Below, in pieces: positions 2,369-63,406 of a stretch of 64,000 nucleotides of DNA (position 1 is its first letter; each line of letters opens with the position of its first letter). Location: sequence record OQ378934.1, one strand, 5' to 3'. Below the pieces are notes generated by a model. It was not told the DNA's origin. It saw only the letters and a program-made list of their open reading frames with translations, and did not search any database. Origin of the DNA: Escherichia phage LH2. The translations under genes were made by a program, and so were the position numbers.

Positions 2369-2398
2369 GTTTACAAGTCCCTCGTGTTGTGTTATAGT
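2369..2398 (+). promoter_or_regulatory. T4 early-type promoter (GTTTAC -35, 18 nt spacer, TATAGT -10) upstream of alc, embedded in an inverted repeat
   Basis: gtttac at 2369-2374, tatagt at 2393-2398; near-identical element repeated at 14886-14915. Confidence 0.5.
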
Positions 2399-2426
2399 AG
2401 ACTTACTGACATAACATGAGGACTTT

Positions 2427-2933
2427 ATGATGGATTTACAGCTTATTACTACTGAAATGGTCGTTGAAGCATACGGTGATACTACAGATGGGATTTCTGT
2501 ATTTAAAGGAAATCGTCGAGTTGGATATATCACCGATCTTAAGAAAGATTTAGCTAAGCAAGTCAAGCGGAAAACGACCATTAAAGAATATCGAAATCGT
2601 CGTCTTGAGCAAGCCCGTGATATGCTTCCTGATGCAGTTGAGGAGATGAAAGTCTTTTTAGAAAATCAGCTTGCGAAATATGATTGTGATGTGTTCATTA
2701 ATCAGACTCAACCTAATGTTCATATCAATAATTGTAAATGCTACATCATCGTTAATCCTTTGACGGGAAAACATCGTCTTGGAATTAGTAATCCAAATCG
2801 TAGCGCATCGGATATGGCAGAAGATGTTGCGGCATGCTTTAAAATTTCTAAATCTCCGGCGGAACATCATATTTTAATTAACGGTCTTTCTCAAGACGAT
2901 ATTATAGAGGTTATTAAAACTTTATGCATGTAA
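2427..2933 (+). CDS. alc: Alc, inhibitor of host transcription (168 aa ORF)
   Basis: Size and position after rnlA as in T4; SD gagga 6 nt upstream; early promoter upstream. Confidence 0.75.
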   Translation: MMDLQLITTEMVVEAYGDTTDGISVFKGNRRVGYITDLKKDLAKQVKRKTTIKEYRNRRLEQARDMLPDAVEEMKVFLENQLAKYDCDVFINQTQPNVHINNCKCYIIVNPLTGKHRLGISNPNRSASDMAEDVAACFKISKSPAEHHILINGLSQDDIIEVIKTLCM

Positions 2934-5373: not shown

Positions 5374-5403
5374 GTTTACTTTACGGTAGAGTTGTGATAT
5401 TAT
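5374..5403 (+). promoter_or_regulatory. T4 early-type promoter (GTTTAC, 18 nt spacer, TATTAT) with inverted repeat ggtagag/ctctacc
   Basis: gtttac 5374-5379, tattat 5398-5403; located in the 62 nt gap before the 5434 ORF. Confidence 0.45.
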
Positions 5404-5433
5404 AGCTCTACCAAAACAAACGAGGAAATTGAA

Positions 5434-12412: not shown

Positions 12413-12434
12413 AGGCCTTCGGGCCTTTAATTTT
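12411..12434 (+). terminator. Intrinsic terminator (aaaggcc-ttcg-ggccttt + T-rich)
   Basis: 7 bp stem with UUCG loop followed by aatttt. Confidence 0.65.
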
Positions 12435-12441
12435 ATAAATA
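12434..12441 (+). promoter_or_regulatory. Late promoter TATAAATA upstream of alt
   Basis: Exact tataaata about 30 nt before the alt ATG. Confidence 0.5.
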
Positions 12442-12470: not shown

Positions 12471-14525
12471 ATGGAACTCATTACAGAATTATTTGACGAA
12501 GATACTACTCTTCCGATTACAAACTTAAATCCAAAGAAGAAAATACCGCAAATTTTTTCAGTTCATGTTGATGACGCAATTGAACAACCAGGCTTTCGTT
12601 TATGTACCTATACATCTGGAGGTGATACTAACCGTGATTTAAAGATGGGCGATAAAATGATGCATATTGTTCCTTTTACATTAACTGCTAAAGGTTCAAT
12701 TGCTAAATTAAAAGGTCTCGGTCCAAGCCCAATTAATTACATCAATTCAGTTTTTACTGTTGCGATGCAAACGATGCGTCAGTATAAAATTGATGCCTGC
12801 ATGCTTCGTATTCTTAAGTCTAAAACCGCTGGTCAAGCTCGACAAATTCAAGTTATTGCTGATAGACTTATCCGCAGTCGTTCAGGTGGCAGATACGTCC
12901 TTCTTAAGGAACTCTGGGATTACGATAAAAAGTATGCATATATTCTTATACATCGCAAAAATGTATCGCTAGAAGACATTCCAGGAGTTCCGGAAATTAG
13001 TACCGAGCTCTTTACTAAAGTTGAATCGAAGGTCGGCGATGTTTATATCAATAAAGATACTGGAGCTCAAGTAACTAAAAATGAGGCAATTGCAGCATCT
13101 ATTGCGCAAGAAAATGATAAACGTTCTGACCAAGCTGTAATCGTTAAAGTTAAAATTTCCCGTAGAGCAATTGCACAAAGTCAGTCATTAGAATCTTCTA
13201 GATTTGAAACACCAATGTTTCAAAAATTTGAGGCTTCAGCGGCAGAATTAAATAAACCCGCCGACGCACCTTTAATTTCTGATGCTAACGAATTAACTGT
13301 TATTTCTACTTCAGGATTTGCATTAGAGAATGCTCTTAGCAGTGTTACAGCTGGGATGGCATTCAGAGAAGCTTCTATAATTCCTGAAGATAAAGAATCC
13401 ATTATTAATGCAGAAATAAAAAATAAAGCTTTAGAAAAATTACGAAAAGAATCTATTACTTCAATAAAAACTTTAGAAACTATTGCTTCTATCGTCGATG
13501 ATACTTTAGAAAAATATAAAGGTGCTTGGTTTGAAAGAAATATTAACAGACATTCGCATTTAAACCAAGATGCTGCAAATGAGTTAGTACAAAATTCTTG
13601 GAATGCAATAAAAACAAAGATTATTCGAAGAGAATTACGTGGATATGCTCTTACCGCTGGATGGTCATTACATCCTATAGTCGAAAATAAAGATTCATCT
13701 AAATACACACCAGCGCAAAAACGCGGAATTCGTGAATATGTAGGTTCAGGATATGTAGACATAAATAATGCTCTTTTGGGATTATATAATCCAGATGAGC
13801 GTACAAGTATTTTAACAGCACCTGAAATAGAACAAGCCATTGATAATTTAGATTCAGCCTTTAAAAATGGTGAACGATTACCAAAAGGTATTACTTTGTA
13901 TCGTTCACAACGAATGTTACCTTCAATATATGAAGCAATGGTAAAAAATCGAGTTTTTTATTTTAGAAACTTTGTGTCAACATCATTATATCCAAATATT
14001 TTTGGTACTTGGATGACTGATTCATCTGTGGGTGTTTTACCAGACGAAAAGCGTTTAAGTGTTTCTATTGATAAAACTGATGAAGGGCTTGTTAATTCTA
14101 GCGATAATTTAGTCGGAATTGGATGGGTTATTACTGGGGCTGATAAAGTCAATGTTGTTTTACCCGGTGGAAGTTTAGCGCCTTCAAATGAAATGGAAGT
14201 CATTTTGCCACGTGGATTAATGGTCAAAGTTAATAAAATAACCGATGCATCTTACAACGATGGAACAGTTAGAACTAACAACAAGCTTATTCAAGCTGAA
14301 GTTATGACCACAGAAGAACTCACCGAATCGGTAATCTATGACGGAGACCATTTAATGGAAACTGGTGAATTGGTTGCAATGACAGGTGATATTGAAATAG
14401 AAGACAGAGTTGACTTTGCATCATTTGTTTCATCAAACGTTAAACAGAAAGTAGAATCATCTCTCGGAATTATTGCGTCTTGCATAGATATTGCAAACAT
14501 GCCTTACAAGTTCGTTCAAGGATAA
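12471..14525 (+). CDS. alt: Alt, head-packaged ADP-ribosyltransferase (about 684 aa)
   Basis: Length and position next to gene 30 and gene 54 as in T4; late promoter upstream. ORF-track start at 12468 is an adjacent ATG. Confidence 0.8.
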   Translation: MELITELFDEDTTLPITNLNPKKKIPQIFSVHVDDAIEQPGFRLCTYTSGGDTNRDLKMGDKMMHIVPFTLTAKGSIAKLKGLGPSPINYINSVFTVAMQTMRQYKIDACMLRILKSKTAGQARQIQVIADRLIRSRSGGRYVLLKELWDYDKKYAYILIHRKNVSLEDIPGVPEISTELFTKVESKVGDVYINKDTGAQVTKNEAIAASIAQENDKRSDQAVIVKVKISRRAIAQSQSLESSRFETPMFQKFEASAAELNKPADAPLISDANELTVISTSGFALENALSSVTAGMAFREASIIPEDKESIINAEIKNKALEKLRKESITSIKTLETIASIVDDTLEKYKGAWFERNINRHSHLNQDAANELVQNSWNAIKTKIIRRELRGYALTAGWSLHPIVENKDSSKYTPAQKRGIREYVGSGYVDINNALLGLYNPDERTSILTAPEIEQAIDNLDSAFKNGERLPKGITLYRSQRMLPSIYEAMVKNRVFYFRNFVSTSLYPNIFGTWMTDSSVGVLPDEKRLSVSIDKTDEGLVNSSDNLVGIGWVITGADKVNVVLPGGSLAPSNEMEVILPRGLMVKVNKITDASYNDGTVRTNNKLIQAEVMTTEELTESVIYDGDHLMETGELVAMTGDIEIEDRVDFASFVSSNVKQKVESSLGIIASCIDIANMPYKFVQG

Positions 14526-14528
14526 ATC

Positions 14529-14714
14529 GTGGAACTTATTACAGAATTATTTGACGGCGCTTCGGCGCCGGTTGTTAACTTAAATCCTAAGCATAAAATA
14601 CCACAAATTTTTGCTATTCAAGCCGGCGAAGAAAGCGTGCTTCCTGGATTTAGATTTTGTACATACACCTCTGGCGGTGATACAAATAAAACGTTAAACC
14701 AGGCGACAAAATGA
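14529..14714 (+). pseudogene. Truncated alt paralog, part 1 (alt.-1-like; homologous to Alt residues 2-62), GTG start
   Basis: MELITELFDGASAPVVNLNPKHKIPQIFAIQAGEESVLPGFRFCTYTSGGDTN vs Alt MELITELFDEDTTLPITNLNPKKKIPQIFSVHVDDAIEQPGFRLCTYTSGGDTN. Confidence 0.6.
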
Positions 14715-14914
14715 TGCATATCGTAATGATAGGTGTTAATGAGAAACTATCATTAGTTAAGCTTAAAAACTTGGGTGGAAATCCAATTGGTGTCATTAAT
14801 GCTGTTTTTGATACTGCTCTTCAAACAATGAAACAGTATAAAATCGACGCATGCCTATTACGCGTACTAAAAAGTTCAAAATGTAGTTTACAAGTCCCTC
14901 GTGTTGTGTTATAA
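14711..14914 (+). pseudogene. Truncated alt paralog, part 2 (alt.-2-like; homologous to Alt residues 64-120), frame-shifted relative to part 1 and ending inside an early promoter element
   Basis: MMHIV...GVINAVFDTALQTMKQYKIDACLLRVLKS vs Alt MMHIVPFTL...NYINSVFTVAMQTMRQYKIDACMLRILKS; reading frame then runs into the gtttac...tataat element. Confidence 0.6.
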
Positions 14915-14915
14915 T
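14886..14915 (+). promoter_or_regulatory. T4 early-type promoter (GTTTAC, 18 nt spacer, TATAAT) within a ~50 bp element repeated at 2369-2422
   Basis: gtttac 14886-14891, tataat 14910-14915; inverted repeat cctcgtgtt...ataacacgagg. Confidence 0.55.
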
Positions 14916-14946
14916 AATCTTACTGACATAACACGAGGAACACAAA

Positions 14947-15237
14947 ATGAAATCTTCTTTGCGCTTTTTAGGTCAAGAACTTGTAGTTGAAGGCGTTATT
15001 CCTGCTGATAATGCTTTTAATGAAGCAGTTTACGATGAATTTATCAAAATTTTTGGAACAGATAAAAAGTTCGGAATTTTTCCTTCTGAAAATTTTTCAA
15101 AGCCAGAGCAGACTGAAAGTATTTTCCAAGGTGTAGTAACAGGTAAATTTGAGTCAGAAGCTCCGGTAAAAATTGAAGTTTATATTGAAGACAGTTTAGT
15201 TGCTTCAGTTGCTGCTTTTATTTCATTCCGTAAATAA
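14947..15237 (+). CDS. Hypothetical early protein (alt.-3-like), 96 aa
   Basis: SD gagga 7 nt upstream; early promoter upstream; bidirectional terminator downstream. Confidence 0.45.
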   Translation: MKSSLRFLGQELVVEGVIPADNAFNEAVYDEFIKIFGTDKKFGIFPSENFSKPEQTESIFQGVVTGKFESEAPVKIEVYIEDSLVASVAAFISFRK

Positions 15238-15243
15238 AAATAT

Positions 15244-15261
15244 GGGGACCGAAAGGTCCCC
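15244..15261. terminator. Bidirectional terminator hairpin (ggggacc-gaaa-ggtcccc) between convergent genes
   Basis: Perfect 7 bp G/C stem with GAAA loop, flanked by A/T runs on both sides. Confidence 0.65.
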
Positions 15262-15265
15262 ATTG

Positions 15266-30667: not shown

Positions 30668-32233
30668 TTAGATACCTTTAACATATACACGGCGGAAGTA
30701 AGCGTTTTTACCAAGGCTATTCAGAATAGAAGGCATACCGCTCTGGATGCGAGAAGCCGGAGCTTGAGCAGCGGATTCTGCAAATGGGTTGATACCGATA
30801 CCGTAACGAGTTTTGAATCCCATTACTGGTTGGAAGTTCTTCGGATCGGAACCACGCAGCGGAGTCAGAGCTACATATGGAGCATAGTAAATACCAGCAT
30901 CCATTTCGTTCGGACCTTTATAACCTACAGTGAAATAATCCTGTTTAGCATACTGGTCGATATATACACGGTATTTACCACCCAGAACACCAGCAAATAC
31001 TGACTTGGTAGTATCAGTGTTAAAGCCGGTAGCCAGACCCTGTGCAGCATAAGAAATGCCAGTATCAACTGAAGCCAGAACGTTAACTACGTTACGGGAA
31101 GCGATAATGAAGTTACCTTCACCACGACCGGTCTGACGAGCAATTTCAACTGCTTCTTTGTCAATCTGGAACAACAGAGCTTTAAAGGATTCACCCGCCC
31201 AGCGAGCACCACGAATATCAATCGGATCCTGGAAGTCAAATACACCAGCTTTAGAACCTGGAGTCAGGGTCATACCAGATTTACCAACCTGAGCCGAGTA
31301 GTTAATCCAATCAACAACTTCACGGTTGATTTCCAGCATGATTTCGGTAGCCAGAATACCAGACAGTTCGGCATCAGCATCCATACCGTGAACAGCGCGG
31401 AGGTCTTGTGCTAATTCGATAGAGTAAGCAGCTTTCAGCTGGCGAGATTTAGCTTCGATAACTTGTTTATCGATACGGAAGCCCATTTCATTCCATGGGT
31501 TATCGGTAGAACCGTTGAAACCTTCCTGGAGTTCAGCGATAGAAGTAGCCATACCTTCAGCGATTTCTACCAATGCACCAGCTTCCATTTGTTTCTTAAT
31601 TTCAGCATCTAATTTAGCTGCATCAGTTGCGCTTGCACTAATTGTTACTTGAGCAGAAGCCTGCAGATACACAGTACCAGTGTCCTGGAAGAAGTGAGTA
31701 TAGATATCACCTACTGTGGTTTCTGTGCTAGCAGCCAGAGCCGGGAATTTCTTAGCAGCACCCTGACCAGAGAACATTGCATCTGGGCCATACATTGGGT
31801 GGAATGCTTCTTTAGCACCGGAAGCGATTGGGTCTTTACCATATACTGCGCGCAGTGCGAATACCTGGCCAGTCGGGCTGTTCATCGGCTGAACACCGCA
31901 AATATCGAAAGCAATCAGGTTAGGAATAGCACGACGTACCATACCCATAACAGCTGGGCCAATCTGAGTTACTGCGCCAGAAGTCTGACCAGCAGCGATG
32001 TTAGTAGCATTGTAACCGTGGTCACCACCGATTTCAGCTTCTGTTAAGAAAGAACCGAACGCCTGAGCGATTTTTTCGTCTTTGTACTCTGGAGCTGTCT
32101 GGAAATCTTTTTCCTGGTTTTCAAAGATTTTAGCGATAATCGCTTGTTTGCTATTAGCAATTTCCGGTAAACCTTCACCTTCCAGTAATGGCTTCCATTT
32201 GTTCAAAAGTTCAGCTTTAGTTTTGATAGTCAT
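30668..32233 (-). CDS. 23: Major capsid protein gp23, 521 aa
   Basis: MTIKTKAELLNKWKPLLEGEGLPEIANSKQAIIAKIFENQEKDFQ... matches T4 gp23. Confidence 0.95.
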   Translation of the reverse strand: MTIKTKAELLNKWKPLLEGEGLPEIANSKQAIIAKIFENQEKDFQTAPEYKDEKIAQAFGSFLTEAEIGGDHGYNATNIAAGQTSGAVTQIGPAVMGMVRRAIPNLIAFDICGVQPMNSPTGQVFALRAVYGKDPIASGAKEAFHPMYGPDAMFSGQGAAKKFPALAASTETTVGDIYTHFFQDTGTVYLQASAQVTISASATDAAKLDAEIKKQMEAGALVEIAEGMATSIAELQEGFNGSTDNPWNEMGFRIDKQVIEAKSRQLKAAYSIELAQDLRAVHGMDADAELSGILATEIMLEINREVVDWINYSAQVGKSGMTLTPGSKAGVFDFQDPIDIRGARWAGESFKALLFQIDKEAVEIARQTGRGEGNFIIASRNVVNVLASVDTGISYAAQGLATGFNTDTTKSVFAGVLGGKYRVYIDQYAKQDYFTVGYKGPNEMDAGIYYAPYVALTPLRGSDPKNFQPVMGFKTRYGIGINPFAESAAQAPASRIQSGMPSILNSLGKNAYFRRVYVKGI

Positions 32234-62113: not shown

Positions 62114-62644
62114 ATGTCGCAAGCACTACAACAAATTTTTAACCAAGCAAATACAACTAACTTTGTAGTATCAATACCACATAGTAATACTACATCTGCT
62201 TTTACTTTAAATGCTCAGTCAGTTCCTATTCCGGGAATTAGGATACCTGTTACTGATACCGTGACTGGGCCGTTTGGACTAGGCCGAGCACAGCGTCCAG
62301 GAGTTACATTTGAGTACGACCCACTCATCGTGAGATTTATAGTTGATGAAGAGCTTAAGTCGTGGATAGGAATGTATGAATGGATGCTAGGAACTAGTAA
62401 CTATCTTACAGGCGAAAATACTGCCCAAAAAACAGGTCCTGAATACATTACGCTTTACATTTTAGACAACAGTAAAACTGAAATCGTGATGTCAATAAAT
62501 TTTTATAAGCCTTGGGTTTCTGACCTGTCTGAAGTAGAATTTAGCTACACGGAAGATTCAGACCCAGCTTTAGTATGTACAGCAACGATTCCTTATACGT
62601 ATTTTCAAGTAGAAAAAGATGGTAAAATTATAGCAGAAGTTTAA
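62114..62644 (+). CDS. 3: Tail tube terminator / tail completion protein gp3, 176 aa
   Basis: ATG at 62114 with SD gagga; ORF-track start at 62033 is an upstream extension. Confidence 0.75.
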   Translation: MSQALQQIFNQANTTNFVVSIPHSNTTSAFTLNAQSVPIPGIRIPVTDTVTGPFGLGRAQRPGVTFEYDPLIVRFIVDEELKSWIGMYEWMLGTSNYLTGENTAQKTGPEYITLYILDNSKTEIVMSINFYKPWVSDLSEVEFSYTEDSDPALVCTATIPYTYFQVEKDGKIIAEV

Positions 62645-62668
62645 TGCTTCAGTTTCATGTGTTATAAT
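62645..62668 (+). promoter_or_regulatory. MotA-dependent middle promoter for gene 1 (TGCTTCA + TATAAT)
   Basis: tgcttca 62645-62651, 11 nt spacer, tataat 62663-62668. Confidence 0.5.
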
Positions 62669-62693
62669 CTTAACTAAATTTGAGGAGAAACAT

Positions 62694-63406
62694 ATGAAAC
62701 TAATCTTTTTAAGTGGTGTAAAGCGTAGTGGAAAAGATACTACTGCAGATTTTATCATGAATAATTATTCTGCAGTTAAATATCAACTTGCTGGTCCTAT
62801 TAAAGATGCATTGGCTTATGCATGGGGCGTATTCGCAGCAAACACTGACTATCCTTGCTTAACTCGTAAGGAGTTTGAAGGAATTGACTATGATCGTGAG
62901 ACTGATTTAAATCTGACTAAATCAGAAGTAATCACGATTATGGAACAAGCATTTTGCTATCTTAACGGTAAAAGCCCAATTAAAGGTGTGTGTGTTTTTG
63001 ATGACGCAGTTAATTTCGTAGCATTTAATAAGATTATTGACGTTATAAATAATATTGAAGATCAATGGTCAGTCCGTCGTCTGATGCAAGCCCTAGGTAC
63101 GGATTTGATTGTTAATAACTTCGACCGCATGTATTGGGTAAAATTATTTGCTTTAGATTATCTTGATAAATTTAACTCAGGTTATGATTATTATATCGTT
63201 CCTGATACTCGTCAAGATCATGAAATGGATGCGGCTAGGGCGATGGGTGCTACAGTAATTCATGTAGTTCGTCCTGGTCAAAAATCCAATGATACACATA
63301 TTACAGAAGCTGGATTGCCAATTCGTGATGGCGATTTAGTAATTACAAACGATGGTTCTCTTGAAGAACTTTTTTCTAAAATTAAAAATACACTAAAGGT
63401 ACTATA

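Follow-up and report, generated by a model that had tools for sequence, protein, structure and literature searches.

Results

A 54-bp early promoter unit occurs twice, upstream of alc and alt.-3

The stretch of DNA analysed here (the window, 64,000 nucleotides in full) comes from Escherichia phage LH2 (OQ378934.1) and is Tequatrovirus (T4-type phage) DNA, in which the + strand is the direction of early transcription. On this strand the gene order is rnlA, alc, pseT ... 30 (DNA ligase), alt, alt.-1, alt.-2, alt.-3, and after alt.-3 the late baseplate genes 54, 48 and 29 follow on the opposite strand. We investigated a 54-bp unit that is present in two near-identical copies, one in the gap between rnlA and alc and the other upstream of alt.-3. 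Each copy carries an early promoter nested inside a predicted RNA hairpin that pairs the downstream gene's ribosome-binding site. The copies and the genes that they serve are:

2369..2422, + strand, copy 1, from the -35 hexamer to the Shine-Dalgarno (SD) sequence, in the rnlA/alc gap; marked in fPS-90 and Lutter as a predicted early promoter
2427..2933, + strand, alc, served by copy 1
14886..14939, + strand, copy 2, from the -35 hexamer to the SD sequence, upstream of alt.-3; annotated as a promoter in Lutter
14947..15237, + strand, alt.-3, served by copy 2

Copy 1 is placed between the rnlA stop codon and the alc ATG, with rnlA ending 3 nt before it, and copy 2 covers the final 29 nt of the alt.-2 open reading frame (ORF). 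The two copies share 50 of 54 bases, and the unit spans exactly the -35 hexamer through the SD sequence. The edges of identity are abrupt at both ends: the identical run extends from the G of GTTTAC to the A of GAGGA, and the flanks of the two copies are unrelated. An earlier note on this DNA, made from the sequence alone, had pointed out two near-identical copies, which was borne out; it had placed copy 2 at 14886 to 14938, of which the start was correct and the end was one base short.

The first 28 bases of the unit occurred exactly twice in the window, versus 0.00 occurrences expected from shuffles, and a repeat scan returned the pair as the longest family and the sole long near-identical pair. 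Other early promoters, either in the window or in a complete relative, had only consensus parts in common with the unit. The closest other early promoter checked, in a complete related genome, had 31 of 54 bases identical, versus 50 to 54 of 54 for the pair. T4 contains the same two copies with a single-base difference; the transcription starts predicted for them would lie there at about 136300 and 123057, minus strand.

Among ~50,000 phage records searched, 499 contained the unit, with 997 occurrences in total. Exactly two copies were present at these loci in 498 of the 499 Tequatrovirus records, the exception being one 32-kb partial record, and no unit was found outside Tequatrovirus at the search sensitivity used. 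These counts exclude a third copy or further copies elsewhere, and the genome-wide search that the earlier note had proposed thus ended at two copies per Tequatrovirus genome. An 18-mer scan of viral contigs and a degenerate 24-mer scan of metagenome contigs returned only 9 and 10 loci, and one scan locus (L009) was rejected as a chance match inside a coding sequence. The T4 element was seen, at 96% identity, at 31824-31877 of MG010123.1, a 32-kb record named 'Staphylococcus phage SAJK-IND' that is probably mislabelled or contaminated.

Both copies have the anatomy of T4 early promoters

In unit numbering, GTTTAC occupies positions 1-6 and the spacer positions 7-24, ending in TGT (extended -10). 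The -10 hexamer at positions 25-30 is TATAGT in copy 1 and TATAAT in copy 2, the SD sequence lies at positions 50-54, and the start codon is found 4-7 nt further on. The promoter elements are:

2369..2374, + strand, copy 1 -35 hexamer, GTTTAC
2390..2398, + strand, copy 1 extended -10 (TGT + TATAGT)
2405, + strand, copy 1 predicted transcription start, the A in CTTACT, 7 nt after the -10, placed by geometry only
2418..2422, + strand, copy 1 SD sequence GAGGA of alc, with ATG at 2427 and 2430
14867..14885, + strand, A-rich 19-nt flank of copy 2, a possible UP element, kept in all Tequatrovirus alt.-3 promoter versions
14886..14891, + strand, copy 2 -35 hexamer, GTTTAC
14907..14915, + strand, copy 2 extended -10 (TGT + TATAAT)
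14922, + strand, copy 2 predicted transcription start, placed by geometry only
14935..14939, + strand, copy 2 SD sequence GAGGA of alt.-3, with ATG at 14947

Of all sigma-70 promoter matches in the first 16 kb, the two copies scored highest (11/12 and 10/12 hexamer positions), and both have TG before the -10. They also match the PST/T4 consensus TTTACW-N17-TAYWAT, as TTTACA-N17-TATAGT and TTTACA-N17-TATAAT, and predicted-promoter annotations are present at both sites in two annotated genomes. Upstream of copy 2 lies the conserved flank ctaaaaagttcaaaatgta, and upstream of copy 1 lies the 3' end of rnlA, which is partly A/T-rich. Compared with canonical T4 early promoters, which are described as UP/-35/TGn/-10 (Hinton 2010, PMC2988021), the copies have the same GTTTAC -35, TGn and near-consensus -10, and copy 2 the A-rich upstream sequence; however, the two copies agree in the entire 5' leader and in every one of the 18 spacer bases, and no consensus calls for this.

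In the time-resolved transcriptome and proteome of T4, alc and alt.-3 are both classified as 'early RNA, early protein'. The alt gene, directly upstream of copy 2, is late, and alt.-1/alt.-2 have 'middle' RNA with no protein detected. Since alt.-3 is thus an early gene directly downstream of the late alt, it needs an early promoter of its own. The C-terminal extension of its product lets T4 escape the CmdTAC defence system (PMC11618068). A literature search found no cappable-seq work on T4. Together, the hexamer matches, the TGn motif, the spacing and, indirectly, the early expression of both genes support the earlier assignment of a T4-type early promoter to each copy.

The promoter is nested in a predicted RNA hairpin that pairs the SD sequence

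The sense RNA was predicted to fold with -24.4 kcal/mol for copy 1 and -23.2 kcal/mol for copy 2 (z = -5.3 and -5.9; 0 of 200 shuffles as good). The antisense RNA folds were weaker (-15.4 and -21.6 kcal/mol), and the unit as single-stranded DNA folded with about -11 kcal/mol (z = -4.6 and -3.4). In the sense RNA, unit positions 12-25 pair with positions 40-53, giving 14 pairs with 3 G.U pairs in the common sequence, and extra pairs form on the loop side and, in copy 1, also on the outer side within the flank, so that the hairpin has 14-18 bp. The inverted repeat recorded earlier was therefore real, and longer than it had been described. Its arms are:

2380..2393, + strand, copy 1 hairpin 5' arm (anti-SD CCTC + GTGTTGTGTT), in the promoter spacer
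2408..2421, + strand, copy 1 hairpin 3' arm, with the alc SD sequence; the outward extension pairs 2375-2380 with 2420-2425
14897..14910, + strand, copy 2 hairpin 5' arm
14925..14938, + strand, copy 2 hairpin 3' arm, with the alt.-3 SD sequence

The anti-SD arm thus lies in the spacer that separates the -35 from the -10, the loop holds the -10 and the predicted start, and the leader, with its SD sequence, forms the 3' arm. The start would be A37 of the unit, within CTTACT, and RNA from this position is without the 5' arm; it was predicted to fold only weakly (-4 to -7 kcal/mol, z above 0), with the SD sequence open. The computed cost of opening the SD-to-AUG region was 10.6-12.5 kcal/mol in read-through RNA versus 2.8-3.0 kcal/mol in self-initiated RNA. 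Because the predicted start is in the loop, the SD sequence would be free in the mRNA made from the cassette's own promoter and paired in RNA that reads through from upstream. In Rfam, no family reached its gathering threshold, the best match being a generic hairpin match of 18.7 bits versus 95.

SD pairing is retained at alc across lineages with different arm sequences

Among 22 distinct Tequatrovirus variants, 98.4% of cells were paired, and the changes included pair-keeping ones: C15-G50 to U.G to U-A, and G16.U49 to G-C or A-U. We then compared alc loci across genera, taken from viral contigs and annotated genomes. In Dhakavirus, Karamvirus and several further lineages, GTTTAC is followed, 2 bases on, by an anti-SD segment that complements the alc SD region. 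This pairing between spacer and SD region covers 8-13 bp and is perfect or near-perfect, and the sequences differ by lineage. The alc arm pairs from non-Tequatrovirus lineages are:

CTCCTCAT / ATGAGGAG
CTCCTCATG / CATGAGGAG
CTCCTCAG / CTGAGGAG
CTCCATTTGGTT / AACCAAATGGAG
CTCCGTTT.. / ..AAACGGAG
CCTCATTTTGTTG / CAACAAAATGAGG

The alc cassettes of these other lineages were predicted to fold with -15.6 to -24.2 kcal/mol. RNAalifold, run on a MAFFT alignment of the cross-genus alc cassettes, returned no structure, the divergent arms being misaligned, and a test of cognate versus non-cognate arm duplexes was used in its place. The cognate pairing of left and right arms from eight lineages was better than all but 3 of 40,320 re-pairings. 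We consider this cross-lineage pairing, as judged from the sequences, the decisive evidence that the predicted hairpin is under selection.

Proposed translational gating by transcript origin and the alternatives to it

These results led us to a reading that we hold to be on balance probable: the cassette would gate translation by transcript origin and so insulate early genes from RNA that reads through from upstream. The cassette would be a self-contained early expression unit, a strong early promoter nested inside an RNA hairpin. RNA from its own promoter would start in the loop, lack the 5' arm and have a free SD sequence, allowing translation immediately after infection. RNA from upstream would carry both arms and fold, which would hide the SD sequence and leave the gene translationally silent. 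At alc the upstream RNA would be prereplicative transcripts through rnlA, and at alt.-3 late transcripts from the alt late promoter. The net effect would be to tie translation of the early gene to its own early promoter. The source of late read-through across copy 2 is:

12434..12441, + strand, late promoter TATAAATA upstream of alt

A terminator scan found no + strand terminator before either copy and none between 12434-12441 and copy 2. Since no terminator precedes the copies and a late promoter drives alt, read-through is plausible at both sites. The first terminator after copy 2 is a bidirectional one at 15242-15263, which lies directly after the alt.-3 stop codon and is shared with gene 54.

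Several observations weigh against translational gating. Covariation within Tequatrovirus was not significant, as 77-130 of 500 shuffles reached the observed values; the sequences vary too little. A pair is broken in five singleton variants, of which four are from the alt.-3 copy. No anti-SD pairing was found in the Mosigvirus alc promoters, which have only a small hairpin inside the spacer, or in the Dhakavirus and Gaprivervirus alt.-3 promoters, so the anti-SD arrangement is not indispensable. The non-Tequatrovirus alc cassettes fold equally well or better as antisense, and the argument from strand is therefore valid in Tequatrovirus only. Finally, the published view of such stem-loops is that they attenuate transcription, not that they block translation.

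Side observations were made at these divergent promoters. The alt.-3 promoters of Gaprivervirus VR20 (L029 1157-1215) and Dhakavirus (L027, L028) contain short spacer-internal hairpins, GCAC..GTGC and CCACA..TGTGG. Their CCACAaggaTGTGG spacer is also found at two early promoters of Escherichia phage DCP2 (76146 and 120537). In Mosigvirus PhAPEC2 (L039 538-601), the annotated alc start at 538 overlaps the rnlA stop codon and lies inside the predicted promoter; the true start is likely the ATG at 601, after the SD sequence.

The published view refers to promoter-early stem-loop (PeSL) cassettes of T4-like phages (Arbiol et al. 2010, PMC2839356; Comeau et al. 2014, PMC4122927), which are recombining cassettes found at the boundaries of indels or replacements in hyperplastic regions, one subclass having a stem-loop that overlaps the -10 box. 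Applied to the present unit, this explanation holds that the stem-loop attenuates or terminates upstream transcription and that the cassette is also a homologous-recombination linker that shuffles genes. We think it possible, yet a good deal less probable than not. The published definition fits the unit, which has a sigma-70 early promoter, a stable stem-loop spanning the -10 and, 3' to it, an SD sequence and a start codon, and termination by one RB49 stem-loop was about as efficient as that by rrnB T1. Copy 2 lies 11 bp from a deletion junction in a variable locus, and the two cassettes show signs of sequence exchange (both described below). However, an intrinsic terminator was rejected here: a G+C-rich stem and U-run are lacking, copy 2 continuing with AACACAAAAUG and copy 1 with CUUUAUGAUG, and the terminator scan flagged neither copy. 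The stems are AU/GU-rich, unlike the G/C-rich RB49 stem-loops, and the part that is conserved across genera is the SD pairing, which a terminator does not need. In addition, 496 of 498 records keep both flanks of copy 1, which suggests that its site lies outside hyperplastic regions.

An RNA processing or stability signal is improbable. Under this explanation, the imperfect duplex of 18-22 bp would be cleaved (e.g., by RNase III) or would act as a protective 3' hairpin, and a processing signal would separate the upstream message (rnlA or alt) from the downstream early gene. The duplex is long, stable and formed only in read-through RNA, and T4 mRNA is extensively processed. No feature of the sequence points to a specific nuclease, however: the Tequatrovirus unit contains no GGAG RegB site, it has no Rfam family match, and in other genera the stems go down to 8 bp, too short for RNase III.

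We consider a DNA-level element, either an operator for a dimeric protein or a cruciform that tunes the promoter, for instance in early promoter shut-off, more improbable still. The arms do bracket the -10 and the start site, the unit folds as single-stranded DNA, and the mechanism of T4 early promoter shut-off is unexplained. Because the arm sequences differ between promoters and genera, there is no common recognition sequence. Moreover, the Tequatrovirus stems depend on G.U pairs, and these turn into mismatches in DNA and on the opposite strand; the DNA hairpin reaches only about -11 kcal/mol. Where the earlier note had offered the repeat as a possible protein-binding or RNA-processing signal, an RNA signal is the best reading. 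Lastly, chance similarity or promoter consensus alone, with an inverted repeat of no significance, can be dismissed: T4 early promoters do have a long common consensus, but this explanation is refuted by the 28-mer count, the comparison with the next most similar promoter, the conservation of two copies in 498 of 499 records and fold z-scores below -5.

Relation to known nested-promoter hairpins

The element belongs to a known kind, that of PeSL-type cassettes and of the T4 hairpins with nested promoters. It resembles PeSL cassettes in its length of ~50 bp, its early promoter matching the PST/T4 consensus, the stem-loop possibly over the -10 with an SD sequence and start codon 3' to it, its repetition within the genome and its possible implication in recombination. 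It differs from them in that its 3' stem arm is the SD sequence itself, and the words 'translation' and 'ribosome' do not appear in the PeSL papers. Its AU/GU-rich stems are without a U-tail. In PST, the stem-loops had been depicted immediately upstream of the promoter. Here, sequence is shared by two copies only, and one of them is in a conserved, not a hyperplastic, context. An early-promoter version of an SD-hiding nested hairpin thus appears not to be discussed in the PeSL papers.

In the T4 genes e, soc, 49 and I-TevI, long transcripts fold and hide the SD/AUG, and transcripts from a late promoter nested in the 5' arm region are without this arm and are translated (Uzan and Miller 2010, PMC3014915). 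The likeness is that the SD sequence is in a helix on the longer RNA and that the cassette's own transcript is without the 5' arm, here in silico. The difference is that the nested promoter of those genes is a late one (TATAAATA), which delays translation, whereas here it is an early sigma-70 promoter, which is predicted to limit translation to the early phase and to block read-through later on. The cassette therefore works like the nested hairpins of e and I-TevI but falls outside the described set, as it has no late promoter.

An analogy is also seen outside phages. In IS10 and IS50, the element's own promoter is enclosed by a hairpin in which an upstream segment pairs with the ribosome-binding site, and only self-initiated mRNA is translated. 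This fold-back inhibition, reportedly described for IS10/Tn10 and IS50 by Davis, Simons and Kleckner in 1985, is said to guard against outside read-through transcripts. The comparison is an analogy only, as these are unrelated mobile elements in which the purpose is to avoid fortuitous transposase activation, and there is no sequence relationship.

If translational gating is right, the trick of T4 lysozyme and I-TevI would be used in the opposite temporal direction, at many early genes, and translation would be tied to transcript origin. This would help to explain why Alc and Alt.-3 are made only early despite later transcripts through their genes, and it would explain how promoter-plus-gene cassettes can be moved in T4-type genomes without upsetting their neighbours. 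In practical terms, the cassette would be a compact, portable module of the type 'translate only from my own promoter'.

Spacer and leader are complementary at many early promoters

We surveyed the 23 early promoters of a complete Tequatrovirus genome, that of Escherichia phage DCP2 (L079-L082), by computing the duplex of each spacer with each leader. The cognate duplexes had a mean of -13.2 kcal/mol, versus -7.2 kcal/mol for non-cognate ones (permutation p < 5e-5), and the cognate pair ranked first for 13 of the 23 promoters. The 3' arm takes in the SD sequence at about seven of the 23. Complementarity between spacer and leader is therefore a general design that extends beyond the twin pair.

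The four strong early promoters of the window are all of this type: those of alc, cd.3 (5374), alt.-3 and gene 1 (62639). In Tequatrovirus, the sense fold was better than the antisense fold at 14 of 14 such promoters, which fits selection on read-through RNA; this sense bias may come in part from the G+T-rich composition. We regard it as tentative, and rather doubtful, that most T4 early promoters lie in spacer/leader hairpins and that each early cistron is translatable solely from RNA of its own promoter, a design of which the twin pair would be the most visible case. If this were true, early cassettes would be self-insulating and so freely shufflable, and early protein synthesis would have a built-in end after promoter shut-off despite coverage by middle and late read-through.

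The cd.3 early promoter (5374-5412) has 7-bp arms, GGTAGAG (5385-5391) and CTCTACC (5406-5412), around the -10. In the T4 reference record, the 14-bp loop at cd.3 is described as 'previously reported as the inverted complement', which is either a hairpin sequencing artefact or a genuine inversion at the inverted repeats. At 62639-62705, the gene 1 (dNMP kinase) early promoter has a hairpin of -17.1 kcal/mol (z = -4.2), the 3' arm of which lies over the start codon.

The two cassettes seem to exchange sequence

In 18 genomes with both copies, there was no fixed difference between the two loci, and the commonest sequence was the same at both. Of the 8 variable sites of the alc copy, seven were also variable at alt.-3; at six of these both copies showed the same alleles, a T/A transversion among them. 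The P value for this count of shared sites (7e-4) applies only if all 54 sites are equally free to vary. The copies within a genome were not significantly more alike than those between genomes (2.61 versus 2.85 differences, p = 0.10). The evidence is thus compatible with exchange now and then together with common constraint, and not with continuous homogenisation.

A further case was found in contig 2706795356 (IMG/VR; L056, L070), which is Dhakavirus-related. Over 32 nt, from immediately behind the -10 to the end of the ATG, the 3' halves of its alc and alt.-3 cassettes are identical, which is not the case in close relatives. This stretch resembles a conversion tract linking the same pair of loci, and this independent case suggests that exchange between the alc and alt.-3 loci has happened more than once. 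The two cassettes thus seem to exchange sequence.

These comparisons are consistent with a history in which one cassette would have been copied over the other in the Tequatrovirus ancestor, later likeness being kept by shared constraint and occasional exchange. The probable direction is that an alc-type cassette overwrote an older alt.-3 promoter, because the anti-SD hairpin is present at alc in most genera examined and because the alt.-3 promoters of Dhakavirus and Gaprivervirus differ and have a spacer-internal hairpin.

The truncated alt copy is the product of a deletion outside the unit

Between alt and copy 2 lies a partial second alt gene:

14529..14914, + strand, alt.-1 and alt.-2 ORFs, the frameshifted remains of a second alt paralog's 5' end

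RB51, T6, T2, RB3 and most other Tequatroviruses contain two full tandem alt genes of 697 and 685 codons, and the stop codon of the second full paralog overlaps the G of GTTTAC. The truncated, T4-type arrangement was found in only about 90 of the matching records. Window positions 14400-14875 were 96.6% identical to the RB51 paralog junction plus the first 348 nt of the second paralog, versus only 78% to the window's own alt. Positions 14867-15000 matched the last 20 nt of the RB51 second paralog (L013 3944-6001) and onward. The two RB51 alignments overlap in the 9-bp CTAAAAAGT (window 14867-14875), which is present at both ends of the deletion in RB51 and forms the first 9 nt of the A-rich flank of copy 2. 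This repeat is not part of the 54-bp unit and lies 11 bp upstream of its -35. From these alignments, alt.-1/alt.-2 is read as the second alt paralog cut by a 1.69-kb microhomology-mediated deletion plus a frameshift.

The earlier note had suggested that recombination between the two cassettes may have given rise to the partial alt duplication, and had proposed a comparison of rearrangement breakpoints. A cassette-mediated origin is ruled out by the junction, since it lies in the 9-bp repeat; of the view that the cassettes are recombination substrates, exchange between the copies is plausible and the origin of the partial alt falls away. Recombination of one cassette with the other would cut out 12.5 kb, with the DNA ligase gene and gene 31 among the losses, without making a partial alt, and no such deletion was found in any complete genome among the 499 matching records. 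For annotation, the partial alt genes are thus best treated as deletion remnants, not as products of cassette recombination. The deletion spared the A-rich upstream flank and the whole promoter of copy 2.

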